A DNA stretch of 64,000 nt from Flectonema sp. DT1601 (GCA_964019425.1 OZ025788.1:682001-746000), one strand, 5' to 3'; positions 2,571 to 59,065 are shown, numbered from the stretch's first letter. Program-made: numbers and translations. Notes: generated by a model not told the origin, from the letters alone.

Positions 2571-3709
2571 TTAGTCGGTGTCTTCAGATTCGCTGTCGGA
2601 GTGCGAGTATTCTACGAAATGCTGTTTTGTTTTTCTTTTTTCCTATTCCCTTAAACTCTACTAAAACTGATAGCTTTCCATCCACACGCGCCGACTCATA
2701 CCTGTGGTGCTGTTCTAAAGCAACTTGATCCGTATTCGCATCGCTTTCGACCTTTCGCCGTTGGTGTTGGTGGAGGTAGATCTGTCTTTGGCTTTTTTAT
2801 TGCAGGAGAGTCTGTTGTCGGAGGAGATTTGTTCTTTTCCCTTGTGGGGTGGTTCCAATCGCGGAGATGTTCCGGATTTGTTCGATAGCAGTTGGCGCCG
2901 TACTTGCAGTCGCCTTTCTTTGAAGCAGCAGCATCATTGTCATCATCTTCGTCCGAATCTGCAGCCGGAGGAGGAGGTGGTGGAGGAGATGGCGGTGGTG
3001 GTAAAGCATCAGAATCGCTATCACTATCTGCAGCAGCTGAGCCTTTGTTTTCGTATTTCTTCAATGCTGTTTCGTATCTCTTCTTATCTTCTCTCGCTAA
3101 GTCTCGGTAAGGCTTTCCCTTTTCATCTTCCAGCTCATCCCACAGTTTTGCCACCATTTTCCTGACGTCTTTAACGGGAACCCCCGGATTGTCTGATTTT
3201 GCTTCTGGCAGTTTCTCTTTTTGGAAGTACATGAATGCTGAAACCGGGCGTTTTGGAGCGTTTGGATCTTTTTTCTTCTTCTTTGGAGATGGTTTAGGAG
3301 CTGCAAAAGGCGGGTCAGTATCTTCATCGCTACTGACACCAAATTCGTCAGCTCTGCTATTTTTAATATTTTGTTTCTTTGTTGGTGATTTCGAGCCAGT
3401 AATTCGTCCCACAGCTCCCTTCAACTCAGCTTTGTCGATGAGCTGCCCTTTTATCAACTTCAACATCAGTTTTTGATCGCCTTCATCCAAATCATCAAAT
3501 CCTTCCAGTTGATCGACGGTGGATACAGCACTCAGTTGCCTTTTCGTAAAACAACAAAGATGCCTCCACTTGTAACTGAAATCTTCTGCGCCAGGCATCA
3601 TGTTCCCAGTCCCAATACGAAGCTCTCCTTGCTCCAGAACCTCCTGACAGGCTTTCAATGCGCACTTACTGCGACCACTCTTCGCATATTCAACTTTTAG
3701 CGGAGGCAT
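2571..3709 (-). CDS. PARP-type zinc finger + HMG box + two PBZ (poly-ADP-ribose-binding) zinc fingers (exons 3709-2702 and 2621-2571)
   Basis: VEYAKSGRSKC...C...WRHLCC (zf-PARP), KDPNAPKRPVSAFMYF...W (HMG box), CKYGANCYRTNPEHLRDWNH and CEYGSSCFRTAPQ|HFVEYSH (PBZ). The second PBZ is completed only by splicing intron 2622-2701. Confidence 0.9.
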
Positions 3710-8768: not shown

Positions 8769-10928
8769 TCATCCTTTAGACTTATTGACTTCACTCCTAT
8801 CCGCATGGTAATGCATCATTCCCAACGTTACTGTGTGAGTAAAACCATTCGGCAGAACTCGACATTTCTCAGCAAGTCTTTCAATTAGTAATTGCAGTTC
8901 AGTGTTATTCATATGTTTTAATTCCTCGGGAAGACAAAAAGGCTGCTTTTCTAATATGCATTGTTTCCAAAGTAAGTTATAGGGTTGCAACATCCTATCA
9001 TCATTATTCGCAAGGAAATACATCCATTCTTCATTTTGTTGCTCACAAACTGACATCGGGACATACAAGACTCCTATACTTCTATGAGGAGGCACACATA
9101 CGATACAAGTAGTTTGGTAGTAAACTAGGTCTATGGGAGCACAAACAACTCGTCCTTCAGCAAAAACCTTTGCTCTCTCACAAATAATCCCACGACCAAT
9201 AGTGAGGCTTGCTGCGTACCTCGCTAGCAAGTGAGCTTCTTCAACAGCACGCCCACAAATAACAAACGACATCATAGCCGAAGAACCTAAAATACCGCAA
9301 GACAGTCTCCCTACCGATACCCCAGCTCTGTAAGCCAAACTGGCACTAGTTACTTCCTGCAACAACGAGACTGATGACAGTGCATGAGAAGCAACTGGTT
9401 TCGAGCAGTTGAATTCCACTGTTATTAAACCCCCAGTGACTGAGTAGATTTTTCCATTTCGGTGCTGCTTCAGGGAGTCCAGGACTACTTGCATGAATTT
9501 AAAATGTTCATTTTCGAGATTTTCGTCGCGCATAAACATGTGATCAACAGCTTCAATAACAACGATACTCCCATCCTTAGCGAACAGTCCGCAAGAAAAG
9601 GCAAGAGTTGACGTGCGACTTCGATTCTCGCTGTTGGACTCTATGCTTTTGAAAGCGGACATCGTTGCAGCTTGCTCAGAGGAATTATCTTGATTCTTTC
9701 GTTCGCTATTAGTCTTCGTTTCTTCACTTTCTTGAGTGTCACAAGCAGTAATTGACTGCGGTAAGAAACTTCGATAGACCACAAGTGCATCGAGCATTTG
9801 CTGCATACGATAAACAAACTCTGATGGCGAGTCGTTAGGGAGACGCTGATCGACACTTTGGATGTTCATTTCCATAATCTCCTCAAAGATCTCTATTAAG
9901 ACTGAGTAAAGTCGATTTCTAGCAATGTATGGACCCCAATACACAGAAGACACGATTATTGCTCCTATCATCGAAATTGCGACACAAATTATAAGTTTGA
10001 AATCCCTGTTGTTATCAGAAGACGATTTACGTAACCAAAGATTCCACTGTCTCCCTCCAGGAAGGTCAATTGGTACGATTTCAAATTTTTGTGACTGCAA
10101 CGCATTCCTGAGAGATATCCCTCCAGTATTCGCTAAAGTTACGTTGAGAGCATTCGTTTGTGAATGAACAACAACAACAGACTTTGTATTTAGATTAAAG
10201 TATTCCAAACAATAATCAATTTCTCCTTCCTTCAGTACTTCTGTAATTTTAATCTGTTCGTGGATCAGAACTTCGACCAATACGAGAGAAGCAGTCATAC
10301 CCCACCAATATTGAAGACTCTCTTCTAACGACATATTAACAAATTGTGAGATTGGGATCTCAGGTGGAACTTTAAAGACAGGATATCGTGAAAGAAGACC
10401 AATACCTCCTTGAACTAAAGGAAAGGGACCAGCAACCATAAGAGAACGAGCTGTGATCCCAGCAATGATATCTTGTCTGCGATCCACGTCATTATACAAG
10501 TCATGACCCCAAGGAGGTACACCAGGTGTCAGAGGAGGGTACGCCTGAGTAACAACTGCTGAGGGCTGGATCTGAAGTGATCCGACTGACGGAAATCTTT
10601 CTGTCAACAACGTCCCTAACTTATATAATTTATCACCGTCAACTGGAATCATTCTGTCTTCTTTACGAGCTGCTGTATGATTAATAACTGGCGTGTCTTC
10701 TCCAATTACAAACCCCGCCAGAGTCCAAGCAGTATTTAACGAGCCGCTCATCGCAGTGGCTAATTCTTTTGAAACTAACTGACCTGTTGTTAGTATGTGT
10801 TCCTTTTCACTCTGAACAGAATTATCGATACCCTGGTCAATCAGAATAATACCAACAAAGATTCCCAGCGCAATTAAGCACAATGGCAATATGACCCCAC
10901 ATAATAAATTACGAAATACGACAGCCAT
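8769..10928 (-). CDS. TM-CHASE-TM receptor with degenerate class III nucleotidyl cyclase-like domain
   Basis: CHASE motifs (LQIQP...GHDL...AGPFPLVQGG.GL..RYPVF...WWG), YRSFLP linker and cyclase-like AGVSVGRLSCGILG. The canonical metal-binding Asp and N..aR motifs are absent. Confidence 0.8.
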   Translation of the reverse strand: MAVVFRNLLCGVILPLCLIALGIFVGIILIDQGIDNSVQSEKEHILTTGQLVSKELATAMSGSLNTAWTLAGFVIGEDTPVINHTAARKEDRMIPVDGDKLYKLGTLLTERFPSVGSLQIQPSAVVTQAYPPLTPGVPPWGHDLYNDVDRRQDIIAGITARSLMVAGPFPLVQGGIGLLSRYPVFKVPPEIPISQFVNMSLEESLQYWWGMTASLVLVEVLIHEQIKITEVLKEGEIDYCLEYFNLNTKSVVVVHSQTNALNVTLANTGGISLRNALQSQKFEIVPIDLPGGRQWNLWLRKSSSDNNRDFKLIICVAISMIGAIIVSSVYWGPYIARNRLYSVLIEIFEEIMEMNIQSVDQRLPNDSPSEFVYRMQQMLDALVVYRSFLPQSITACDTQESEETKTNSERKNQDNSSEQAATMSAFKSIESNSENRSRTSTLAFSCGLFAKDGSIVVIEAVDHMFMRDENLENEHFKFMQVVLDSLKQHRNGKIYSVTGGLITVEFNCSKPVASHALSSVSLLQEVTSASLAYRAGVSVGRLSCGILGSSAMMSFVICGRAVEEAHLLARYAASLTIGRGIICERAKVFAEGRVVCAPIDLVYYQTTCIVCVPPHRSIGVLYVPMSVCEQQNEEWMYFLANNDDRMLQPYNLLWKQCILEKQPFCLPEELKHMNNTELQLLIERLAEKCRVLPNGFTHTVTLGMMHYHADRSEVNKSKG

Positions 10929-21923: not shown

Positions 21924-24900
21924 TTAGACGACAACGCGATTGTTTTCAGAAGCACCTCGGCGTCTGGATGGAGCTTCCTGTTCAGCAGGAGGCAGTTTCA
22001 CAAGCGACCCCATCAAACTCGACTGTGATTTGGTACTCGACGGTGATTTGATACTCGAATGTGATTTAAGGGACGCCTGAGACATACCTCGTCTTCTAGC
22101 AGAAGACGGCCTTGGAGCAGACAGTGTATTCGCAGAGAGGAGCGAAGTACTCAAAGGGCGATTGGTTTTACGATAAACACGCGAAGTGGTTGTCTGAGAT
22201 CTCGATCTCATCATAACAACACTATGTTCTGGTGATGTTATGCTATCCGATACAACTGGTGAATGAAATGAATTACCAGCTGATGAATTTCTAAAAGATT
22301 GATTAGACTCAACGTCAAGAAGATACTCATCATCAGTCTCAAGTACTCCCAATTCTACTCCTGGATTTAACTTCTCAGCGCTCTTTTGACGTCTGCAAAC
22401 TGCTAGTCCCCAAGTAAACCCATCGTATAGAGCTCTAATAAAACACGCTAACATACCACCCATAATAAAGAAAGTACCAATTGTTATAACAGGAGAGGTG
22501 GCTGTTTCCATACAAAATCCTATTCCCCACAATATAAGTCCGGTTGCGGGTAGAATGTTTACCACAAAGAGTAAGTGACTGAGAAACTTTGTAATACCTG
22601 GCTTCCATACGAGACACGTGATTGCCATTATTAGAAATACAACTGAAAGAGTGAAAGCCTTAAGAGCACAATGCCACCAAGTAGTTGCTTTTATTACTGT
22701 TATTAATGTGAGTGGGAGGATGCTGCCAACATCAAGAAGAAGGTATCTACCACGGGTCCAGGGACGTGCACAGAAATTGTCAAATAGCACACCCATTCTT
22801 TCACAGTGTTTATCATCAGATGTAGAAACCCACTCAATAGATCCCAGGATGTATTTTGAGAGACCAGCTCGATGGATTTCGACTGGCATTATTTCCGAAT
22901 TAAAAGCAGTATCAGACAATATATTAAAACATATCCAGTATATTCCAAAACAACAAATCACTCCAGTGACACCAATCAAGATCTTTGAAGCATCAGCTGT
23001 GTATCCGATGCACGCAAAACTACTTTCCAAGCAACCCGGTGACAGGAACAACGGAACCAACAGCGTAACTGTTGGGTAGCGAAATCGCGCCATAGCGTCT
23101 GTCAAAGAAACTTTGAAAATGTATTTGTACGCATACACTGCTGCTGTAAATAATAAATAGACACCAGTTGCGACTATCAAAAACCCAACAACGCAACCTG
23201 CTTCTTGTGAATCTCGAACACTGAAGCCTAGAGGATGGATTAACTTCGGGAGATCTACTTCACCGTCACTGCTCTCAATTAAACATTCCATGTTATCAAT
23301 TATTAAGGCTAATCGGGAAGCCAAGGAACTTGCAGGCGAGCCTCCAGCCACTAAGGTGATCGCCGAAGCCACCGCTACGGAATTACCAATTCCTACCACA
23401 GTTTTTAATGCTGACTTAGTTACAGCAGGAAGTTCGATGTTGAGACCTACTTGTTCTACAATGTCAGTTATCGAAATTGAACTGACGGTGTTAGGAACAG
23501 TTGCATTCGGCAGAGCAGTTGGAATTGATGTTGTATTGATTGGAAGAGAGGTTGGAAGCGCAGTCGGCACGGCAGTTGGAACGGCTGTTGCACGCACTGT
23601 GGTTGGAATCGCAGTCGGAATAGCTGTTGGTACCGCAGTTGGCACAGCAGTCTGAGTGGCTGGTACTGCAGTTGGTACAACGGTCGGCACAGTAGTTGGA
23701 ATGGCTGTTGGGACTGCTGTTGGCACCGCAGTTGGCACAGCAGTCTGAGTGGCTGGTACTGCAGTTGGTACAACGGTCGGCACAGTAGTTGGAATGGCTG
23801 TTGGGACTGCTGTTGGCACCGCAGTTGGCACAGCAGTTGGAATGGCCGTTGACACTGCAGTCGGAACAGCAGTAGGTACAGCAGTCGGAATAGCTGTCGG
23901 CACCGCAGTTGGAATGGCTGTTGGCACAGTAGTAGGTACCGCAGTCGGAACAGCAGTCGGTACCGCAGTTGGCACTGCAGTTGGAATGGCTGTTGGCACA
24001 GCAGTAGGTACCGCAGTTGGCACCGCAGTTGGAATGGCTGTTGGCACAGCAGTAGGTACCGCAGTTGGCACAGCAGTTGGTACAGCAGTAGGCACCGCAG
24101 TAGGTACCGCAGTTGGCACCGCAGTAGGTACCGCAGTAGGGACCGCAGTAGGGACCGCAGTTGGCAATGCAGTTGGAATGGCTGTTGGCACAGTAGTTGG
24201 TACAGCAGTAGGTACCGCAGTTGGCACTGCAGTTGGAATGGCTGTTGGCACTGCAGTTGGCACAGCAGTTGGCACTGCAGTTGGAATGGCTGTTGGCACT
24301 GCAGTTGGCACAGCAGTTGGCACTGCAGTTGGAATGGCTGTTGGCACAGCAGTTGGCACAGCAGTTGGCACAGCAGTTGGCACTGCAGTTGGCACTGCAG
24401 TTGGCACTGCAGTTGGAATGGCTGTTGGCACAGCAGTTGGTACAGCAGTAGGTACCGCAGTTGGCACTGCAGTTGGAATGGCTGTTGGCACAGCAGTTGG
24501 TACAGCAGTAGGTACCGCAGTTGGCACAGCAGTTGGCACAGCAGTTGGCACTGCAGTTGGAATGGCTGTTGGCACAGCAGTTGGTACAGCAGTAGGTACC
24601 GCAGTTGGCACTGCAGTTGGAATGGCTGTTGGCACAGCAGTTGGTACAGCAGTAGGTACCGCAGTTGGCACAGCAGTAGGTACCGCAGTTGGCACTGCAG
24701 TTGGCACTGCAGTTGGCACTGCAGTTGGCACTGCAGTTGGAATGGCTGTTGGCACAGCAGTTGGTACAGCAGTAGGTACCGCAGTTGGCACTGCAGTTGG
24801 AATGGCTGTTGGCACAGCAGTTGGTACAGCAGTAGGTACCGCAGTTGGCACAGCAGTTGGTACAGCAGTAGGTACCGCAGTTGGAATGGCTGTTGGCACA

Positions 24901-26210
24901 GCAGTTGGTACAGCAGTAGGTACCGCAGTTGGTACAGCAGTAGGTACCGCAGTTGGCACAGCAGTTGGCACTGCAGTTGGAATGGCTGTTGGCACAGCAG
25001 TTGGTACAGCAGTAGGTACCGCAGTTGGTACAGCAGTAGGTACCGCAGTTGGCACAGCAGTTGGCACTGCAGTTGGAATGGCCGTTGGCACAGCAGTAGG
25101 TACCGCAGTTGGCACTACAGTTGGCACTGCAGTTGGAATGGCTGTTGGCACAGCAGTTGGTACAGCAGTAGGTACCGCAGTTGGCACTGCAGTTGGTACA
25201 GCAGTTGGCACCGCGGTTGGTACAGCAGTTGGCACCGCGGTTGGTACAGCAGTTGGAATGGCTGTCGGAACTGCAGTTGAACCAGTGCTATATATTTTAA
25301 ATGAAGATCCACAAGAGGCATAAATGTAGTTACCATTGGCAGTTAGTCCAAGACCCTCGTCACAAGTCTGATCTGAGTAAAGTAAGGTAGGAGTAGAAGG
25401 ATTTGGAGACGTAATTTCATAGACACTAAATCCAGGATTACCTTTGTCACCAACAACTAAAAGGTTTCCAACAACGAGGATGTCTTGTATATCAACGAAT
25501 CCTCCAATTGTTGCGGACTCAGGAGGAGGAGTAGCACCTCCCGACATGTCGTAGATTCGAATAGTTGTCTTATCAGCAATATAAAGAGGACCTGGTGAAT
25601 CTTCGATAAAGACCGCCTGAGCTCTGTCTGATGCGCTGATCTTAAATAGTTTTGTAGGCCCTGCGAAGTCAATCGCAAAAGTGTCGTCAGAACAGGCAAT
25701 ATAAGCGACTGTTCCACTAATTGCGACATCTCTTCCCTCACCACTATTTGTTATATCGAAATTGTCTTGAAAATTCATGTTACCATTTGCAGCGACGTAA
25801 AATTGGCGTAGGTCACAAGTTTCATGCAGCGCAAAGAGTGCATCATTTCCAAGATACGAGGTGGTCGCCAGTGCGAGTACGTCAGTTGATGACGTTTTCA
25901 CCTTGGCAGGAGATCCGGTTAAATCTACTGAGCGAAGCTTCTTATCGTCTCCATAGAATACGAAGCTTCCGAATGCCGCGACGTCTACTGTGTCGGTTGC
26001 GAAATTTAAATTGTTACTTGTCGCCATCGCAATATTTGAAGGATTTGATATATCAACAGTAATCGCCCTAGCTCCCGAGAGAAAAGCTAACGATCCAACC
26101 ACCGTCACAGCATTCGTTTGCTGGACAAATGTATCTCTTGAACCTTCTAAGGTAATTGTGACTGAGTTCGTGACCCCTAATGCAATTAAGAAAATTACCT
26201 CCCGCAGCAT
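21924..26210 (-). CDS. Large surface protein: signal peptide, LVIVD-like beta-propeller, TAVP mucin-like stalk, multi-TM domain and Ser-rich cytoplasmic tail
   Basis: 1428-aa ORF with ITVDISNPSNI, DVAISGTVAYIA and VYEITSPNPSTP repeats, about 570 aa of (TAVP/TAIP)n, and roughly 8-9 hydrophobic segments. Confidence 0.9.
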   Translation of the reverse strand: MLREVIFLIALGVTNSVTITLEGSRDTFVQQTNAVTVVGSLAFLSGARAITVDISNPSNIAMATSNNLNFATDTVDVAAFGSFVFYGDDKKLRSVDLTGSPAKVKTSSTDVLALATTSYLGNDALFALHETCDLRQFYVAANGNMNFQDNFDITNSGEGRDVAISGTVAYIACSDDTFAIDFAGPTKLFKISASDRAQAVFIEDSPGPLYIADKTTIRIYDMSGGATPPPESATIGGFVDIQDILVVGNLLVVGDKGNPGFSVYEITSPNPSTPTLLYSDQTCDEGLGLTANGNYIYASCGSSFKIYSTGSTAVPTAIPTAVPTAVPTAVPTAVPTAVPTAVPTAVPTAVPTAVPTAIPTAVPTVVPTAVPTAVPTAIPTAVPTAVPTAVPTAVPTAVPTAVPTAVPTAIPTAVPTAVPTAVPTAVPTAVPTAVPTAVPTAIPTAVPTAVPTAVPTAVPTAVPTAVPTAIPTAVPTAVPTAVPTAVPTAIPTAVPTAVPTAVPTAVPTAVPTAVPTAVPTAVPTAVPTAIPTAVPTAVPTAVPTAVPTAIPTAVPTAVPTAVPTAVPTAVPTAVPTAIPTAVPTAVPTAVPTAVPTAIPTAVPTAVPTAVPTAVPTAVPTAVPTAIPTAVPTAVPTAVPTAIPTAVPTAVPTAVPTAIPTAVPTAVPTAVPTTVPTAIPTALPTAVPTAVPTAVPTAVPTAVPTAVPTAVPTAVPTAVPTAVPTAIPTAVPTAVPTAVPTAIPTAVPTAVPTAVPTAVPTTVPTAIPTAVPTAIPTAVPTAVPTAVSTAIPTAVPTAVPTAVPTAIPTTVPTVVPTAVPATQTAVPTAVPTAVPTAIPTTVPTVVPTAVPATQTAVPTAVPTAIPTAIPTTVRATAVPTAVPTALPTSLPINTTSIPTALPNATVPNTVSSISITDIVEQVGLNIELPAVTKSALKTVVGIGNSVAVASAITLVAGGSPASSLASRLALIIDNMECLIESSDGEVDLPKLIHPLGFSVRDSQEAGCVVGFLIVATGVYLLFTAAVYAYKYIFKVSLTDAMARFRYPTVTLLVPLFLSPGCLESSFACIGYTADASKILIGVTGVICCFGIYWICFNILSDTAFNSEIMPVEIHRAGLSKYILGSIEWVSTSDDKHCERMGVLFDNFCARPWTRGRYLLLDVGSILPLTLITVIKATTWWHCALKAFTLSVVFLIMAITCLVWKPGITKFLSHLLFVVNILPATGLILWGIGFCMETATSPVITIGTFFIMGGMLACFIRALYDGFTWGLAVCRRQKSAEKLNPGVELGVLETDDEYLLDVESNQSFRNSSAGNSFHSPVVSDSITSPEHSVVMMRSRSQTTTSRVYRKTNRPLSTSLLSANTLSAPRPSSARRRGMSQASLKSHSSIKSPSSTKSQSSLMGSLVKLPPAEQEAPSRRRGASENNRVVV
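23545..25277. repeat. 12-bp coding minisatellite (Thr-Ala-Val/Ile-Pro)n with higher-order structure
   Basis: Tandem units such as GGCACAGCAGTT, GGTACCGCAGTT and GGAATGGCTGTT, including an exact 93-bp tandem duplication around 23641-23826. Confidence 0.97.
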
Positions 26211-40032: not shown

Positions 40033-41901
40033 TTACGTTTTTCCTTTCCAAACAGCATCCACACGAATACCTAAGAATGTTGGGAAACGTGGGATACCTC
40101 CAACAGTGAGTTCCTGGTATTTAACAGTTATTATGGATCCGATCTTTGGTGGGTTGTTCCTCTGTGCGTCAGTAAAACCTGAACCAACATTAAATCTTTT
40201 CCCATTCTCTAACATACACTGCAAGGCACCCATTCTGTTGGTGTTCTTGCCTTTTCCTTTTTCAATACCCTTGACAAGAGCTTCACAGTCAAGGAATCTT
40301 TTTACCTTTAAAAGTGATGACGACCTCGAATGTACGTACATTGAACCAGGTTGACGAAGCATGACTCCCTCACCCTTCAGTGCTATTATTCGATCTAACT
40401 CACTAGTGACGTGATCAGGTCCGGTACACTTTTCTTGCTTGCAGACGTTAATGTGATCTGGAGTTGATGCAAGAAGGGAATTCATTGCTTTCATACGATT
40501 CTCCCAATTCTCTTTTACAGTGGGGATGTCAAATACTTCGTAAGTTGTGTTCTTCCAACCAGCGTGAGCTTCAGATGACTTTACTACGCTGACGGTTGTT
40601 TGAAATTTCCCGCGTCCGCCAAATAGTTCGCCATCCAACTGGACATCCTTCGGAAGACACTTTGTAAACCACTCAGGAGCTCTGAACTCATTCCCGTTTC
40701 TTGACAGAAATGTTGTTCCATTCCAAAAAGCACGTACCCCATCTAACTTTTCACTCATCCAGTATCCTGTAATTGGTTTCTTCTCGTCCCACTTTTCAGC
40801 CAAAAGTACTCCAGGCATAACAAACTTCTTTAATTTTGCAGCTTTCGCTGTCGTTGCTCCTCCTGTTAAGCCACAGCGTTCCTTTTCAAAATCTACACCC
40901 AGATATTCTTTTAAGTGTTTGCAGGTTCTGGCGTTAACTGCTTGGTTTTGATATCTCCAGGCAACACATGTACAGTAGTAGCCGTCATGTGTGAACTTCA
41001 TTTTATACTCCTGACCACCACCTGATACCATAACTAGCTCATCTTCAGGCATGTGTCTGTCAGGAGTGACGCCGTTTATTGTTCGCTTCTTTCGGAGGTT
41101 GATATCCGTCACATCGATCTGATTTATCTCTTCGTCTTTTGCTTTCTTATCTTCAGTTTCTTCCTCTTCGTCATCATCTGCGACAACCACCGCCTGGTCA
41201 ACACTGTCGTCACCGTGAGAGAACTGCTTAAAATGCATCGGGTTCTTCCTCGAACAGTTCGCACCGTACTTACAGACTGGGAGTGGACCAGAATCATCAT
41301 CATTTCCGTGTGAGTATTCGAGGAAATGTGCTGGGTTCTTCCTCGTACAATTGGCTCCGTACTTACAGACAGGAATAGTTTTGATCTTCTTTACTGGCTT
41401 GGTTTCCGAGGCGGCTCGCTTCCCAGAGTCGAGAACCTGCTGAGTGTCATTTTCAACATCATCTGGTCCACTTGACTTATCAACGTCAGATGGCAGTTTC
41501 TTACTGACAGATGATGTCCTACGAAAGACTAATTGATTAGATCCTTCCCTGTCCTCTGGGTCATCAATTGGAGGAGGGAGATCTGTCTTTGAAATCACGT
41601 ACAAATACTGACCGTCAGGAAGCAACGCAATTCGATCTTTCACAGTAATGGCATCCGTCTTCCCGGCACCTAATCGATAAGACATCTCACTACTTCCCAT
41701 TGGGAGAATAATTATGCTATTCGTACCAAGGGATTTTACTTCTAATTCTCCTTCACGAATTCTAAATTGACAATGTTGTCTACTAATCTGAGTATCATAG
41801 AGACCAGTTGACTCACCTCTTCCTACTACGACACCAATATCATCGATATCAATAATCCGATGGCCTCCCTCACCAACAGGAAGGAGTTGAAACTTTGACA
41901 T
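40033..41901 (-). CDS. FHA + 2xPBZ + SWIM-like zinc finger + ATP-dependent DNA ligase (adenylation and OB domains)
   Basis: FHA (VGRG...ISRQHC...GTN), PBZ CKYGANCTRKNPAHFLEYSH and CKYGANCSRKNPMHFKQFSH, YCTCVAW...TCKHL, and ligase motifs SEKLDGVR, LDGELF, FDIP, GEGVMLR, LLKVK, VGSGFTD and PRFP. Confidence 0.95.
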   Translation of the reverse strand: MSKFQLLPVGEGGHRIIDIDDIGVVVGRGESTGLYDTQISRQHCQFRIREGELEVKSLGTNSIIILPMGSSEMSYRLGAGKTDAITVKDRIALLPDGQYLYVISKTDLPPPIDDPEDREGSNQLVFRRTSSVSKKLPSDVDKSSGPDDVENDTQQVLDSGKRAASETKPVKKIKTIPVCKYGANCTRKNPAHFLEYSHGNDDDSGPLPVCKYGANCSRKNPMHFKQFSHGDDSVDQAVVVADDDEEEETEDKKAKDEEINQIDVTDINLRKKRTINGVTPDRHMPEDELVMVSGGGQEYKMKFTHDGYYCTCVAWRYQNQAVNARTCKHLKEYLGVDFEKERCGLTGGATTAKAAKLKKFVMPGVLLAEKWDEKKPITGYWMSEKLDGVRAFWNGTTFLSRNGNEFRAPEWFTKCLPKDVQLDGELFGGRGKFQTTVSVVKSSEAHAGWKNTTYEVFDIPTVKENWENRMKAMNSLLASTPDHINVCKQEKCTGPDHVTSELDRIIALKGEGVMLRQPGSMYVHSRSSSLLKVKRFLDCEALVKGIEKGKGKNTNRMGALQCMLENGKRFNVGSGFTDAQRNNPPKIGSIITVKYQELTVGGIPRFPTFLGIRVDAVWKGKT

Positions 41902-42859
41902 TGAAGTGAAACCTAACAACAGAGAGGAGAGTGAACTACATCCACACACAACATAAAATATATCAAATTACGTCACTCATCTCTTCTTCTGTAGGGAGAA
42001 TTGATTATTTCATACACATCATCGTCTTTATAACTTTTTCAAAAATCGAAGGAGGGATAGAATTAATTGCACAGAAACCAGCAAAATCAGTAATCGGAAA
42101 AAAGCGCACCCTGCGAGTTGGCAAACAGTTGAATAATTAAAACAATGTTTCACTAGAGCTGCTTTAACTTAAGACTACTAACTAGGAAACTCGTGCGTGG
42201 TGTGCACGAAAGGATTTTCAAAAAAAAAAAGAAATACTTGTGTAACCTTCTTCACCAGCGATTAATCACCACAAGAGTAGTTTAAGAATAATCAACACCT
42301 AAACACCCTCTTGATATCTTGTTCTGTGAAAACAGAAACTATGATAAACTTTTATTGATAAGAATACCGAAAGTGATTAGAGAAAGTTGTCTAAATATTT
42401 TTTGTGAAAACAACAAACATAACGAGACAACTATCAATCAAAAAAAAAGATAGCACAAAAATATAAAAACGAAGGGATGCCATAAAATGCCTGAGTTACA
42501 GTTAAACCTAGTCCAGAACTGATGACCCACGCAGGGTTTTTTAACAGCTCAAGTTGAAAGGATACAAATGATTACGTAAACGCGAGTAAAACAAAATCAT
42601 CATTTCCATTCCATAAATAAACCCTATTTTTTTTTTGTTTTTTCCCCTATAAAATAACCACATTGTGTAAAATACCACGAAATAATATAAAAAAACCCCC
42701 CTCAATTGTCCCATTAAGGGGGATTACCGAAGAAACAATAAAAAAGTACCACAAAACAATGATCAACACGGAACACGAATAACAATATCAATCTGTAAGA
42801 AATAGCGAAAAAGCTCAAATGAGACAGTCAGTTTAAGGTCTTTGCCTGTACCGGACTAT

Positions 42860-44605
42860 TCAAGTGACAGTGACACTCTGGGTTGATGACACAGCGCACT
42901 TGTCTGCGATTATTAGTGGATCTGGTGGACCTCCTTTCATAAGAGATCGGAGTCTATCAAAGTGAGGACCGCTGTGTTTATTTAATTCTTTACATCTGTC
43001 TGTTGACTGATCAGTAAGTAGAGCTGTCGCAATATTGTTAAATGTTTCCCATTGATCAGGACTCTCACAAGTATACATCCATTCTTCATTATCATCCCTA
43101 GTCATTACTTCGTATAACACGTGAACTTCATTAAAGTAAAGTATTGTTTGAAGGTGGACACGAATCTCAAAACTGTTTTTAAGTAAATTATACATCCCAG
43201 CTTCTGACAACATTGGGATACCCGCAAGACAAGCTGTTCTTTCAACAACACAAACTAGAAGAGATATTTTACCAATTACACTAAATCTCTTTACGGAATC
43301 ACTACCGAGAACACCGCAGAACAGTTTCCCTGAACCCATTCCAACATGAAGAGTTAAATTACCTGCCTCGGAATAAGGTTCAAGTATCGCTGGGGCTAAG
43401 TTAACAATTCTAGCTGCTGCATTCACACAAGTGGATGCATGTCTCTTCAACGGTCTCGTAGCTCCAAAGTTTGCGAAGACTCGATCTCCGAGAAACAAAT
43501 CGAGTGTTCCTTTATTACGAACTATCACTTCACAAGTTGTAGAAATAAGATCGTGAATTAATGATCGAAAAGACTCTGCTGAAAGTAATAACACCGAATA
43601 AGATGATTTAATATTCGCAACAAATAACGAACCAGTCAACGATTTAAATCCAGTTTTGGCTCTTCTGATGTCGAACATGTTTCGACTGGACTTGGTAGAA
43701 GCTGATCTTTTGTTACGTCTACTTGGGAGTGAAGCGCTGTCTTCCATAATAATACCTTCAAACCCATCTAAAGGAAGACAAGACTGAGGTAAGTAAGGTT
43801 TGTAAGATCGAAGATTACAAAGTATCCTTTCTAAGGCTTCTCGTAGCTCTTCCGGAATCATCGATTCATCGAGCAACTCTGCTGCACTCTCTAAGTCAAA
43901 CCTGGCGAGTGATATCGCAATATGGTTAGCAGTTTCAATGGAGGCTAAGATAGCACTCTTCTCCTCATAAAGCGCAGCTGCGAAAGACCGAGTGCACACA
44001 AAATCTACTACAAAAATACCCAGCTGTGCAGAAAGAGCGGTCAGGGCTTCATTGAACTCTAACTCGCAAGGAAGGTTTTCACATGAGTAATTCTTATGTC
44101 GTTTGCTTTGAGAATACTCTCCCCAGGAGAAGTCCAACAGCCCGTAGCGGAACTTCTTTTCGGTCGTTAAGATGCAGAGCATGACGCAGCAATATGAAAC
44201 AATAGCGATGGAATAATTATTTGGTACCTCACACGATAGTAAAATATCAACAAGAAGAACAAACATTGGCCAAGACGGAACACTCTGCATCGCCGAGCTA
44301 TCAATTTCCGCCAACGTAATTGCAACTACTCCAATTACGGCGATGGAACCAATTAATTTATTTGTTGCTTTCCTTCTGAATCCAATCAAAACGATTAACG
44401 TACTAATTGATAACATAAAAAGTACCAGAGCTGACACAGCAAGTAGGTGTCTCTCTGTTGACACTACGCATGCCAGAAATGAAAAGGGTAGACATATCGT
44501 CGAGACGACTATGAGAAGTTTTTTTCTTTTTATATCAAGCGGGGTATCTATTTCTGTTATTGCTCGGCGAAAGCAGCTGTGGAAACACTTCTTGACTGAG
44601 GCCAT
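42860..44605 (-). CDS. Multi-TM protein with degenerate class III cyclase-like domain
   Basis: About 6 TM helices, LRSYKPYLPQS linker, FLGDRV and VGMGSG..FCGVLG. The first catalytic Asp is replaced by Asn (VANIKSS) and there is no N..aR motif. Confidence 0.8.
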   Translation of the reverse strand: MASVKKCFHSCFRRAITEIDTPLDIKRKKLLIVVSTICLPFSFLACVVSTERHLLAVSALVLFMLSISTLIVLIGFRRKATNKLIGSIAVIGVVAITLAEIDSSAMQSVPSWPMFVLLVDILLSCEVPNNYSIAIVSYCCVMLCILTTEKKFRYGLLDFSWGEYSQSKRHKNYSCENLPCELEFNEALTALSAQLGIFVVDFVCTRSFAAALYEEKSAILASIETANHIAISLARFDLESAAELLDESMIPEELREALERILCNLRSYKPYLPQSCLPLDGFEGIIMEDSASLPSRRNKRSASTKSSRNMFDIRRAKTGFKSLTGSLFVANIKSSYSVLLLSAESFRSLIHDLISTTCEVIVRNKGTLDLFLGDRVFANFGATRPLKRHASTCVNAAARIVNLAPAILEPYSEAGNLTLHVGMGSGKLFCGVLGSDSVKRFSVIGKISLLVCVVERTACLAGIPMLSEAGMYNLLKNSFEIRVHLQTILYFNEVHVLYEVMTRDDNEEWMYTCESPDQWETFNNIATALLTDQSTDRCKELNKHSGPHFDRLRSLMKGGPPDPLIIADKCAVSSTQSVTVT

Positions 44606-48500: not shown

Positions 48501-50295
48501 TTACAACGCAACCGCTTCCTCTTCGTAATAAGTTGTTGGCTTCATTGACGGAATAGGAATCCCACTACTGTGATTGGAGATATTTGGACAACCACTATTT
48601 TGAGAGAATCCAACCTTTAATAGATGTTGATTATTATTTATAAGAGGAGACGGAACTTGTGGAGAAGACAAGTGAGAAGAAGACTCCGATGACGTACGAG
48701 GTTCATGCAAGACTGCAGGACTCAATTCCATTACAGCAGGAGACTGCTGTACAGGATTAACAACCGGCTTTGATTCTACAGTCTCTTGCTCAGACATAGA
48801 ATCAACTGATGAGACTGTATTAAGCCAATCAGGTTCATCAACGTGAGGTTTTACTTCAGTTCGTTGTTTACCAATTGCTGTTGTTGTGAATGATGCTTTT
48901 ATCATTTCTTGAAGCTTCTCAGATATTCTTCTGGTACCTCCGAGATCAGAATTAGAAGAAGTATCATCTTGATCAATAAAGTTATATAACCAATGGTGAT
49001 TTAATAAGTTGTCGGCACTCCATCGTTTTTCAGAGTCTGGGCTTAGACAGATTTTCAAGAAATCAACAGCTTCTTCAGAAACTGCTGGGCTTTTAGGAGC
49101 GCATGGTGGTAATGGCTCCTTCCAGTTACCAACCGTGTACATTGCTTGCCAAGTTGTGTCAAATCCTTCTGTTGGCCAAGCAGGTTTTCCCTGATTGAGA
49201 AGTTCACAAGTTACGCATCCGACTGACCAAATATCAGCTTTCAGAGTGACTCCTGATGGACTTGTAATCGCTTCTGGTGCCATCCAAAGAGGGGTTCCTG
49301 ATAAAAATGATTTCCTGCTGTCACCGATATCAAGTTTCTTACTTGTTCCAAAGTCTGCTAACTTCAGCTGACCCTCGGATCCCATTAAAATATTATCTGC
49401 TTTCAGATCCCGATGAAGGATCTCATGCTTGTGAAGGTAACCAACTCCGAATAGTATTTGACGAACATACGCAATGGCTGTAGTTTCGTCGAGGGCACGT
49501 TTCAGCTTTCGCACAAATTCACCGAGTGTACCTCCGTGAATACATTCCATAAAGATATTCAATCCCTCGTCATCTATAGATGCTCCGTAGTACTGTTTTA
49601 TAAAAGTGTTTTCTAAATATTGTTTTCTAAAACAAAAAGGATTCATAAATATAAATATAACATACTCTGACAATGTTCGGATGTCTGAGGTCTGACATCA
49701 ACTCAACCTCTCGTCTCAGTTCGATGAGCCGTTCTTTAGGAAGCTCGCTGTGTAGTGACATTGTTTTAACTGCGAAGAGAGTTCCATTTCCTCTGATGCC
49801 GACATGAACAGAACCAAAAGACCCGCTGCCGAGTAGCCTTCCGCGTTGCCATTGTCGAGGAACAGACGAGTCTTTTCTTTTACCGAAACCTTCTGATGGT
49901 GAGAGAGGAGGTTTTGAAAGGTAAGTTGACGACATTAGGTCATCACTTGGTGATTTTGTTGCATGTGGAGTTGGAGGGTTGTATTTGATATCAACTTCTT
50001 CAACAACTTCATTACCGACTTCAATGCTCTCGATAACAACAATCGGTGATGGTTTTGTCTGTTTGTCCAGCAACGGAGACGTAGCTGATGACGTAATTGA
50101 ATTATTTAATTCCCTTCTTATGCTTTGTAACTCTTTGTTATTACCATCAGAAGCCTTCCTTGACATTTGAGACTTCAATTTGTGGTATTTCAGTTTCATC
50201 TTATTCCATTGAACAACAGCTATAACGAAGAATATTCCCAAAACAAGAAGTACTGGGCCCCATATTGGTGCATACCCACTTCCACTTAGAGACAT
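48501..50295 (-). CDS. STE11/MAP3K-like Ser/Thr kinase with N-terminal TM anchor (exons 50295-49666 and 49592-48501)
   Basis: LGSGSFG, FAVK, HPNIVR|YYG joined across a 73-nt intron, HRDLKADN, DFG, GTPLWMAPE and DIWSVGC. Confidence 0.93.
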
Positions 50296-56797: not shown

Positions 56798-59065
56798 TTA
56801 TTTGAAACTCGGAAAGTCCACTCGAAGTGATTTCCCCGTTCGAGTTAACTCAGTTACCCTTAGAAGAACTCTATCGAATGGCGACATGTTTTGTTGAATA
56901 GCTTCCCAATCCATTTTATCGAATGCCTCTAAGTATTCTTCACTCCATCCCCAGTCGAGGTCTATTTTAGCTTCACTGAGAGTTTGATTTTTTGCCTTTT
57001 GAGTAATCCATTCCTTTAATATATTTACATGAAGTTCATAAATTATCGTAGACTTAGTATTCTGAACCCATCGGTCAACAGGTCGCTTAATTGGGACGTC
57101 GATGGGTGTGTTCGCACAAAGAGCAAATGCTCCAAAGTCAGATGCAGCCTGACAGAGTTGATGAGAACTTCCAACACAGTCACCGTACACAGTGATGAAC
57201 TTCTGTTCTGAAGTTCCAACTCGTCCAGAGTGTACAGAGCTGGAGGACACTCCAATGAAAACTTCATCCAAAGAAGGAAATGTTCCGTACATTAAAGATA
57301 CAAATCGAAGAGCGTTGTGAAAATGAGCTGATAAGTATTTCGATGTATTCCACCCAATTGTTATTGAGGACGCGAGTACCGATACAATCGTTCCGTCAGT
57401 TCGTTCAACGCAGAAGATCGCTTTCCCCAACGCCATGTTGATGAATGTTTGAATGTCTTGATCGTAGTCGGTATCGATTGTTAAATTAGCATTGCATACT
57501 GTGGCAGATTTTCTTTTCATCATATCCAACTCAAGTAATTCGAGTGTTTGACAGGCGCTCACACTTATTCTTGTTGATATGTCAGTACACAAATCAATAA
57601 TGGTAGATGGTAAACTGCGATACATTGAATTTTCATCTTCGGTAAAATGCTTGTGTGTAAGGATTGTAATGTTAGTCGGGGAGTCGTCAATTCCCTTTAA
57701 TGTTTCGCATATTTCTTTGTAGTCCCAGCCTTCGATCATTTCAAATTCATGCTTAAAATCCGAGTCTATAGCTACACCACCAGGAGTACAGACACCTTCT
57801 AGTCGAGCTGCTTTGTTTACACTTCTGCCAAGGTAGTCTGTACGTCCGCTTAGAGGGTTTATTTCGGCCTCTACTTCTCCATAGTGGATTCCTATTCTCA
57901 CCATTAGACCGTTCCAACTGTTCTTTTCAAACACCGGTGGTAACATCAAATCAGACGGCCATATTGCAACAGCAAGCCTTTTTTGAACACTCATCGCAAA
58001 CGAACATCCATCAAACAAACTTTCAAATGCGACCATAAATGAATCTCCGATTGTTTTCACTTCGTATCCACCAAACTCAGCCATACAACCTCTAATGATG
58101 TTGTTGTGGATTTTTAAAGCTCGTTTCATGGCATCGGGGGAAGCTTCCCATATGGCAGTTGACGACTTCAAGTCGGTAAATAAAATAGCTGCTTCGTCTC
58201 CTTGTGGTGGACGAACAGTATCATGAGTACATTCTTCCGATGATGAAAATAAAGAATTCGGTAAGTAAGGACGATACTGATGTAGGTTTCTAAGTAGCTG
58301 ATTGAGAACTTCTGTAAGAGCATTGTTTTCTTCTCTATCAATAATCACCTTGGCTTCCTCCAGATCAAAGCGTACCAATGCTGCAGCTACAGTCTCTGCG
58401 AGAAGGACACTGGCTTCTAGCTTTTGCTGTTCATGTTGCATACCCTTGGCAAAGTTACGAGTACATAAAAAGTCCAGTATCAACAACGCTAGATACGCGC
58501 CAAGGACAATTGTCGCTTCTCTTTGATTTTCCTCGCACGGAGCAGAATTCAATTCTTCAGGTGTCAAGTTGAAACACTGTAAGCTTCTTAGTTCTCGGTC
58601 TCGGATGTCATACAACCCAAATCGGAAAACCTTTTCAAAGGTATCGATGACGAGATATAACGTAGTTGCTGCAACAACGCAGTTGGAAACACTCGGATGT
58701 AATGAACACAACAATATAATGTCGAGAACTAACACTACGAATGGCCATAAGCGTGCCTGCATCTCACCAGCACGACGACTATCAAATATAAGAATTGTAA
58801 AACTCCAAGTGACCATTAGAATCGTGATATCTGTTGTTGTTAATTTCTTAGTTACGAAGTTCTTGATCCCCAAGAGGAAGCTGACTGTGAGACACACTGA
58901 ATTTCCAGAAGCTCCAATGTGCCATTCATCTGTTACGAATGCAGAAAACACTACGACAGCCGTTAGGACCACAACTACAATCGTGGCTGGAATAACAACT
59001 CGTTTCCTTTGTCGATCTATTGGCTGGTCTTGTTCCGAGAAGAACGGAGCTAATATGATTCCCAT
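56798..59065 (-). CDS. Multi-TM adenylate cyclase with one intact and one degenerate class III domain
   Basis: LFTDLKSST, EVKTIGDSFM and DYLGRSVNKAARLE supply all the adenylyl cyclase catalytic and specificity residues. The second cyclase-like copy lacks them. Confidence 0.9.
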   Translation of the reverse strand: MGIILAPFFSEQDQPIDRQRKRVVIPATIVVVVLTAVVVFSAFVTDEWHIGASGNSVCLTVSFLLGIKNFVTKKLTTTDITILMVTWSFTILIFDSRRAGEMQARLWPFVVLVLDIILLCSLHPSVSNCVVAATTLYLVIDTFEKVFRFGLYDIRDRELRSLQCFNLTPEELNSAPCEENQREATIVLGAYLALLILDFLCTRNFAKGMQHEQQKLEASVLLAETVAAALVRFDLEEAKVIIDREENNALTEVLNQLLRNLHQYRPYLPNSLFSSSEECTHDTVRPPQGDEAAILFTDLKSSTAIWEASPDAMKRALKIHNNIIRGCMAEFGGYEVKTIGDSFMVAFESLFDGCSFAMSVQKRLAVAIWPSDLMLPPVFEKNSWNGLMVRIGIHYGEVEAEINPLSGRTDYLGRSVNKAARLEGVCTPGGVAIDSDFKHEFEMIEGWDYKEICETLKGIDDSPTNITILTHKHFTEDENSMYRSLPSTIIDLCTDISTRISVSACQTLELLELDMMKRKSATVCNANLTIDTDYDQDIQTFINMALGKAIFCVERTDGTIVSVLASSITIGWNTSKYLSAHFHNALRFVSLMYGTFPSLDEVFIGVSSSSVHSGRVGTSEQKFITVYGDCVGSSHQLCQAASDFGAFALCANTPIDVPIKRPVDRWVQNTKSTIIYELHVNILKEWITQKAKNQTLSEAKIDLDWGWSEEYLEAFDKMDWEAIQQNMSPFDRVLLRVTELTRTGKSLRVDFPSFK

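Follow-up and report, generated by a model that had tools for sequence, protein, structure and literature searches.

The gene and its genomic setting

The window analysed here, i.e., the whole stretch of 64,000 nucleotides from Flectonema sp. DT1601, carries on its minus strand, from position 41901 to 40033, an open reading frame of 622 amino acids with no internal stops. This intronless ORF (40033..41901) corresponds to a Lig E-type ligase gene displaying the domain order FHA-PBZ-PBZ-SWIM-like-Lig E. The initial annotation of this DNA had claimed the same order (FHA, two PBZ fingers, a SWIM-like finger and a minimal ligase) within a single ORF, and the claim was confirmed by the intact reading frame, by Pfam and NCBIfam matches, and by motifs. 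A pyrimidine-rich tract (41913..41935, minus strand) ends in AG 12-13 nt ahead of the ATG, and its sequence is likely that of a spliced-leader acceptor, which would back ATG 41901 as the start; an upstream GTG at 41949 was considered and rejected in favour of this ATG, and the closest orthologue begins at the same Met. Regarding the coding strand, 21 of the 22 window ORFs of at least 200 aa are located on the minus strand, and this bias, along with the pyrimidine tract and AG preceding the ATG, is what a trans-splicing euglenozoan should display.

The 622-aa protein is most similar to a transcript product from Flectonema neradi (76% identity), which identifies the window as DNA of a diplonemid, a marine protist. 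The composition of the ORF (GC 0.436, GC3 0.39) falls inside the range of 13 other ORFs of the window. Contamination or a recent bacterial insert was rejected, as the composition is like that of the neighbours and the orthologues track diplonemid relatives in the tree. The neighbouring genes (according to Pfam, an arginine methyltransferase, a cyclase-like protein and a hydrolase) are unrelated to the ligase. A structure model based on a 57-sequence alignment reached a mean pLDDT of 84.2 and a pTM of 0.51, with folded domains connected by disordered linkers; this model was used instead of a single-sequence prediction, which gave a pLDDT of 32.

Elsewhere in the window, a 337-aa ORF (2696-3709, minus strand) combines a PARP-type zinc finger, an HMG box and two PBZ stretches, and likely encodes a second PAR/nick-sensing protein; it ends within the second PBZ, and may continue after an intron. 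A membrane protein of 1428 aa (21924-26210, minus strand) contains a very long PTAV/PTAI tetrapeptide repeat, which also gives rise to an antisense frame of 509 aa (23794-25323). Three membrane-bound cyclase-like ORFs were also noted on the minus strand (8769-10928, 42860-44605 and 56798-59065), the second being just below the Pfam cyclase cut-off and the other two being judged by eye. Finally, a protein kinase (48501-50295, minus strand) is seemingly split, with an intron as the probable cause, into two ORFs that overlap (49627-50295 and 48501-49646).

Ligase core, reader domains and linkers

The C-terminal part of the protein was matched by the Pfam models DNA_ligase_A_M (aa 380-534) and DNA_ligase_OB_2 (aa 548-613), and by NCBIfam PRK09125 with 307.7 bits (cut-off 200), while the NCBIfam LigD, LigB and LIG1 models scored far under their own cut-offs. 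The nucleotidyltransferase (adenylation) domain is encoded at 40294..40821 (minus strand; Pfam, structure match and motifs), and the Lig E-type OB_2 domain (PF14743) at 40057..40293 (minus strand; Pfam and structure match). A complete set of ligase motifs was found, which we take to be motifs I, Ia, III, IIIa, IV, V and VI; motif I contains K385, the KxDG lysine, whose codon lies at 40747-40749 (minus strand), and the intact active site proposed beforehand was hence borne out along with the remaining motifs. When compared with the DNA-bound Lig E structure 6gdr, the model gave a TM of 0.91 by target and an rmsd of 1.9 over 254 columns, Lig E structures being the top matches, and it displays the Lig E fold devoid of a helical DNA-binding domain or latch. 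The suggested kinship of the compact ligase with bacterial minimal ligases was supported by these fold matches as well as by PDB sequence matches, and its catalytic identity as a Lig E-type ATP-dependent DNA ligase is near certain.

Preceding the core, a SWIM-like zinc module (approximately aa 260-345; 40867..41124, minus strand) was recognized by pattern and model, and is common to bacterial and phage relatives. SWIM domains are defined by a CxC-x(n)-CxH pattern located after beta-strands and followed by a helix. The finger of the 622-aa protein is CxC-x14-CxH (aa 310-329), preceded in the model by strands (aa 288-310) and followed by a helix (aa 328-334), and the CxC...CxH pattern was found in 122 of 125 proteins. 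UniRef names label relatives as 'SWIM-type'; the Pfam SWIM model gave no score for the 622-aa protein and an E of ~0.02 in two relatives, the fold search barely covered the finger region, and a PDB sequence search with the SWIM region retrieved no true match, only a chance one to a netrin receptor. Ligases combining the finger with the core are frequent among Planctomycetota and Myxococcota (75 of 80 bacterial ORFs were SWIM-positive, a biased count given that one genome search pattern was the SWIM motif itself), and also occur in some viral contigs, where the finger is present in 14 of the 79 recovered ORFs. Since this SWIM-plus-core arrangement is shared with bacteria and viral contigs, we consider that the SWIM-like finger came with the core. 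The viral contigs bearing such ligases (L081-L084, L086, L090-L094, L103, L118, L131 and L148) are mostly larger than 100 kb; in many smaller ones, the ligase consists of a 250-aa core alone.

At the opposite end, aa 1-107 (41581..41901, minus strand) constitute an FHA domain of the APLF/aprataxin/PNKP type, according to sequence and fold matches. Pfam FHA_2 was matched at aa 11-63 with 25.6 bits (cut-off 23.1), the best PDB sequence match of the region was APLF, and a fold search with residues 1-108 returned APLF (Z 15.2; rmsd 2.0, 104 residues), aprataxin (13.4) and PNKP (13.2), with other FHAs scoring lower. The phosphothreonine-pocket residues reported for APLF, R27, S39, R40 and N60 (PMC4655838), are retained as R28, S40, R41 and N61, and this pocket is intact in all 7 diplonemid-type proteins. 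APLF K36/R37, placed to read the acidic and pSer positions of XRCC1/XRCC4 (PMC4655838), correspond to T/Q, and K or R was found at neither position in any of the 7 diplonemid-type proteins; the APLF P29 equivalent is likewise replaced in the diplonemid-type FHA. An FHA-profile search of the longer proteins yielded 8 matches, among which there was no diplonemid stand-alone APLF, the search being word-limited and having missed 3 of its own inputs.

Two PBZ fingers follow, matched by Pfam with 71.3 bits, and closest to APLF among solved structures. Finger 1 comprises aa 179-198 (41308..41367, minus strand) and finger 2 aa 210-229 (41215..41274, minus strand); according to Pfam and alignment, the tyrosine of the CYR motif is replaced by Thr in the former and by Ser in the latter. 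Matches over the PBZ to conotoxin and CCCH families, below the Pfam cut-off, were rejected. The roles of the C(M/P)Y and CYR motifs of APLF are given in the legend of Fig. 12 of PMC6264785 (second-hand for residues), and the PBZ consensus has a leading K/R (PMC4030884). In the diplonemid PBZ, the zinc ligands and the equivalents of Y381 and R387 (APLF numbering) are retained in all 14 fingers, and the aromatic equivalent to Y386, i.e., the CYR tyrosine, in none of them (T in 13, S in 1), the APLF Y386/Y428 equivalents being replaced in both fingers of the 622-aa protein. The leading K/R is present in 1/14 diplonemid fingers vs 95/113 fingers from 68 other family proteins, which also display Y or F at the CYR position in 109/113, although these counts come from related sequences and do not represent independent events. 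The euglenid-like copies retain the CYR Tyr (3/3), and the PBZ scored in a different gene of the window retains both the K and the Y. A CYR aromatic is also present in only 1 of 9 proteins of the single-PBZ sister group described below.

As the CYR tyrosine is gone from all the diplonemid fingers and the leading K/R from nearly all of them, PAR binding is doubtful and, judging from these substitutions, may be weakened. It could even be that the diplonemid fingers changed their ligand (to single-stranded nucleic acid or mono-ADP-ribose) or are vestigial, and that recruitment proceeds through the FHA and SWIM, independently of PARP; PBZ does resemble RNA-binding tandem zinc fingers (PMC4030884), two PAR-contact positions are altered in nearly all diplonemid fingers with the Thr itself being conserved, and the other PBZ of the window kept K and Y. 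We regard this as unlikely, given the invariance of the Y381 and R387 equivalents, the abolished recruitment reported for APLF Y381A (PMC3627606), the strong avidity attributed to tandem PBZ fingers (PMC4030884), and the tyrosine of the euglenid-like copies. These conserved non-canonical fingers offer a natural way of testing the rules of PAR binding.

Two linker features were overlooked in the initial annotation. The first, an F-x-R-x-x-S motif (aa 126-131; 41509..41526, minus strand), is present in 7/7 FHA-bearing diplonemid-type proteins, was modelled as a strand (block pLDDT 80), and is likely a basophilic-kinase site or a docking strand; a looser version displayed family-wide enrichment, with 33 occurrences vs 9.1 expected in 32 cluster representatives, and 16 vs 12.2 expected in 18 other ORFs of the window. 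The second is a basic patch located just ahead of PBZ1 (aa 169-174; 41380..41397, minus strand), recognized by linker conservation as a P/A-x-K-K/R-x-K/R pattern shared by P0001-P0008 and the euglenid-like proteins, which from its sequence likely functions as a nuclear localisation signal. An acidic stretch lies in the disordered linker following the PBZ fingers (aa 242-257; 41131..41178, minus strand), and reaches 9 D/E per 12 residues; the post-PBZ maxima for P0001-P0007 are 9, 9, 7, 2, 7, 2 and 1, and the segment has no aromatic residue. The stretch that had been pointed out is therefore present in this protein, but its position is not conserved among orthologues, and it does not represent an APLF-type acidic chaperone tract.

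Relatives and ancestry of the ligase core

The same domain order was found in F. neradi, D. ambulator, D. japonicum and Namystynia (4 Trinity transcript ORFs), in D. papillatum (KAJ9441857.1) and in P0006. It is also found in P0138, 37% identical to the 622-aa protein over its full length, whose N-terminal part is 58% identical to the EukProt entry 'EG_transcript_27208', a label that we take to designate Euglena gracilis. This E. gracilis-labelled sequence, P0291, itself stops after PBZ1 without reaching a ligase, and is probably a partial transcript or fragment. The presence of this order in six diplonemid-type orthologues (4 of them transcriptomic) and in a euglenid-like protein shows that the fusion is real, and the transcript-derived orthologues uphold the earlier view that the FHA/PBZ and ligase parts belong to one polypeptide. 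From these sequences, the fusion is probably old in Euglenozoa, its layout predating the diplonemid-euglenid split.

In the 150 best cluster representatives, PBZ was present in 36 and, by profile, FHA in 5, 3 of these FHA matches being weak (20-28 bits, under the Pfam cut-off). The Luapelamoeba protein P0051 displays the order FHA-PBZ-PBZ-BRCT-SWIM-ligase, and other members of the family bear BRCT, WWE, UBA, WGR or PolX. In P0129/P0135, P0206 and P0236 the ligase comes first, followed by PBZ and a C-terminal FHA, i.e., the mirror image of the window layout, which suggests that FHA and PBZ were paired repeatedly with the ligase core. A sister group with a single PBZ (P0009, P0010, P0013, P0014, P0020, P0139, P0143, P0146 and P0161), possibly corresponding to free-living kinetoplastids, has no FHA, the place of which is taken by a long N-terminal region with no Pfam match above cut-off. 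DNA polymerase X is fused to the ligase in P0113, P0162 and P0235, the first two also having the SWIM-like finger, and such fusions would be expected to combine gap-filling and sealing. Lastly, the basidiomycete-type proteins P0011, P0012 and P0015-P0017 carry up to 4 tandem SWIM-like fingers and zero PBZ. Depending on the lineage, the same minimal ligase has thus gathered FHA, PBZ, BRCT, WWE, UBA or PolX modules.

In a quick tree of 87 core rows, all 37 eukaryote-type rows were recovered together (SH-aLRT 89, unstarred), the label of those lacking a source name having been assigned in this analysis, and the sampling having followed likeness to the query. A reduced tree, obtained after removal of 44 rows (all 23 viral, 11 bacterial and 10 eukaryote-type), separated 27 eukaryote-type from 16 bacterial rows with a split support of 97/83; fungi and animals were each grouped, and diplonemids adjoined the single-PBZ sister group and Bigelowiella. 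Approximately unbiased (AU) tests, with hypotheses chosen after the tree was seen, rejected the joining to sampled bacteria of diplonemids alone (p 0.0003) and of diplonemids plus the sister group (p 0.007), the latter result leaning on Bigelowiella. When 16 more distant representatives were added, the support for the eukaryote split went down to 57, and two rows shifted among prokaryotes. In the expanded tree, proteins with the core first and PBZ last formed a separate group (SH-aLRT 98), a group of 21 rows included molluscs and fungi (SH-aLRT 96), and the FHA required 5 changes, at least 3 of them forced. These core trees have no true root, and comprise rows other than AvLigE, ligase k and canonical Lig E.

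Concerning the earlier suggestion of a horizontally acquired ligase, the SWIM-ligase core is clearly related to bacterial ones, but a transfer from the sampled bacteria to diplonemids only is rejected; a bacterial or viral source of the core is plausible but old. A more far-reaching scenario, to which we would give little credence, is that SWIM-Lig E (found in Euglenozoa, Amoebozoa, fungi, lophotrochozoans, hemichordates and Rhizaria) constitutes an ancient and overlooked fourth family of nuclear ligases, which would have existed close to the root of eukaryotes and undergone widespread loss instead of repeated acquisition; the euglenozoan form, with an APLF-like targeting module of its own (FHA and two PBZ), would be the ligase chiefly responsible for PARP-coupled sealing of breaks in diplonemids and euglenids. 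These findings make it testable whether eukaryotic Lig E is ancient or the result of a string of bacterial transfers.

Proposed function and comparison with known systems

Taken as a whole, we lean towards an accessory ligase for nuclear repair that belongs to the PBZ-Lig E family, combines an added APLF-type FHA with modified PBZ fingers, and would be tethered to breaks via a pThr partner and, probably weakly, via ADP-ribose chains; relatives bearing other damage-response modules were counted for this repair role. In the proposed mechanism, the basic patch would drive nuclear import, damage signalling would leave pThr and PAR marks at the break, and the FHA and tandem PBZ, mounted on flexible linkers, would concentrate the ligase there, the reader domains standing in for the DNA-binding domain missing from the minimal core. 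K385 would then be adenylated, and the NT/OB clamp would seal the nick as in Lig E, while the SWIM-like finger, inherited with the core, may aid DNA or partner binding, and the F-x-R-x-x-S site may permit control by a kinase. Recruitment by PAR is the weakest step of this proposed function.

In the strong form of the reading given in the initial annotation, the protein would single-handedly replace the LigIII/XRCC1/APLF complex, having been acquired horizontally and targeting itself to PARylated breaks, a proposal that we find distinctly improbable. Both FHA and PBZ are nearest to APLF among solved structures and planctomycetes and myxobacteria commonly encode the SWIM-ligase core, but the protein has no XRCC1 scaffold features, Ku-binding Trp motif or conserved acidic chaperone tract, and acquisition by diplonemids only, or by diplonemids and their sister group, was rejected (p-AU 0.0003 and 0.007). 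NHEJ genes are also reportedly present in D. papillatum, which counts against a substitute of this kind. The same holds for bdelloids, which retain LIG1/3/4 beside their PBZ-Lig E (PMC10665377). A weak point in favour of the substitute is that D. papillatum is apparently among the species with no Ku detected in a database search (PMC11936186 Table 3).

The nuclear repair reading also has to be weighed against cellular location. The D. papillatum 'DNA ligase' DIPPA_32344 is listed as 'cell membrane' (SVM 0.495, imputed), with DeepLoc assigning it to the nucleus (PMC12697944); for this entry and for DIPPA_09318, the 'DNA ligase' rows considered in PMC12697944, no match to the orthologue KAJ9441857.1 was established. 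DIPPA_09318 matches yeast RFC1, which suggests a BRCT protein unlike the 622-aa ligase. Diplonemids contain very large amounts of circular mitochondrial DNA, a point in favour of a ligase serving mitochondrial DNA or routine replication instead of nuclear damage repair. Despite this, and despite the PF01068+PF14743 core shared with kinetoplastid mitochondrial ligases (PMC10665377), such a role is very improbable, as the N-terminus is an FHA fold and not a basic presequence, the NLS-like patch is conserved, and the listed mitochondrial DNA ligase of D. papillatum is a different, short PF14743 protein, the sole 'DNA ligase' row in the portion of the PMC12699882 supplement that was covered.

The architecture, which the initial annotation did not know from any characterised protein, is less novel than suggested there: the 622-aa protein is a variant within the eukaryotic PBZ-bearing Lig E/'LigK' family, and not a new system. 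PBZ-bearing members were described as 'LigK', consisting of a PF01068+PF14743 core with a usually N-terminal PBZ, in fungi, protists and some animals (PMC6264785); they were later renamed Lig E, with N-terminal PBZ noted in three animals, and AvLigE was characterised, AvLigE-B being nuclear, X-ray-induced and responsible for ~35% of nick ligation in extracts (PMC10665377). The protein studied here has PBZ on a PF01068+PF14743 core, and its core groups with eukaryotic members of the Lottia, Aplysia and Saccoglossus type. FHA or SWIM on a Lig E ligase, Diplonema and Euglena are unnamed in the texts of PMC6264785 and PMC10665377, figures aside; a literature search covering few subscription journals retrieved no publication describing a Lig E with FHA or SWIM, and nothing on DNA ligases or NHEJ was found in PMC7052976.

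A similar layout is that of the uncharacterised Lig E with N-terminal PBZ from molluscs, hemichordates, chytrids and amoebozoans (e.g., Lottia, Aplysia, Saccoglossus, Capitella), which share the PBZ(s)-SWIM-like-NT-OB_2 order and the same tree group, but mostly have no FHA, retain the CYR aromatic, and in some cases add a BRCT. AvLigE-A/B and MvLigE (Mortierella) resemble the 622-aa protein in their PF01068+PF14743 core, 1-2 PBZ, eukaryotic nature and proposed damage role (PMC10665377, PMC6264785), whereas the layout of AvLigE, core first and PBZ/PST repeats last, is the opposite. A leaderless ligase cluster with WGR from deltaproteobacteria and planctomycetes has been described, along with linked fungal enzymes (PMC7470946, PMC8455567); the SWIM(-WGR) ligases of Planctomycetota and Myxococcota (NT-OB_2-WGR cluster, PMC7470946) share the SWIM-like finger and core with 43-50% identity, but they have no FHA/PBZ, often carry WGR, and are separated from the 622-aa protein by the eukaryote/bacteria split of the reduced tree. 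The canonical periplasmic Lig E of Neisseria (8u6x), the Psychromonas type (4d05) and Alteromonas (6gdr) provided the best PDB sequence and fold matches; unlike them, the 622-aa protein has no export signal, aa 1-107 being the FHA fold, and carries ~350 extra N-terminal residues. By composition and fold only, the mitochondrial presequence typical of kinetoplastid ligase k alpha/beta was absent.

With respect to APLF, the analogy holds for the FHA subtype and the tandem PBZ, and fails for the Ku-binding Trp, the conserved acidic tract, and the K36/R37 and Y386 equivalents; the Ku80-binding motif (Arg...Trp; residues in APLF as given in PMC6264785) is absent, with no Trp before residue 315, and APLF itself has no ligase. 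The module acts like the APLF reader module at most, and is not an APLF. It makes testable whether reader domains alone can aim a minimal ligase at breaks, and a family with one characterised branch, in which AvLigE raises the radiation tolerance of human cells, now reaches the genetically tractable D. papillatum.
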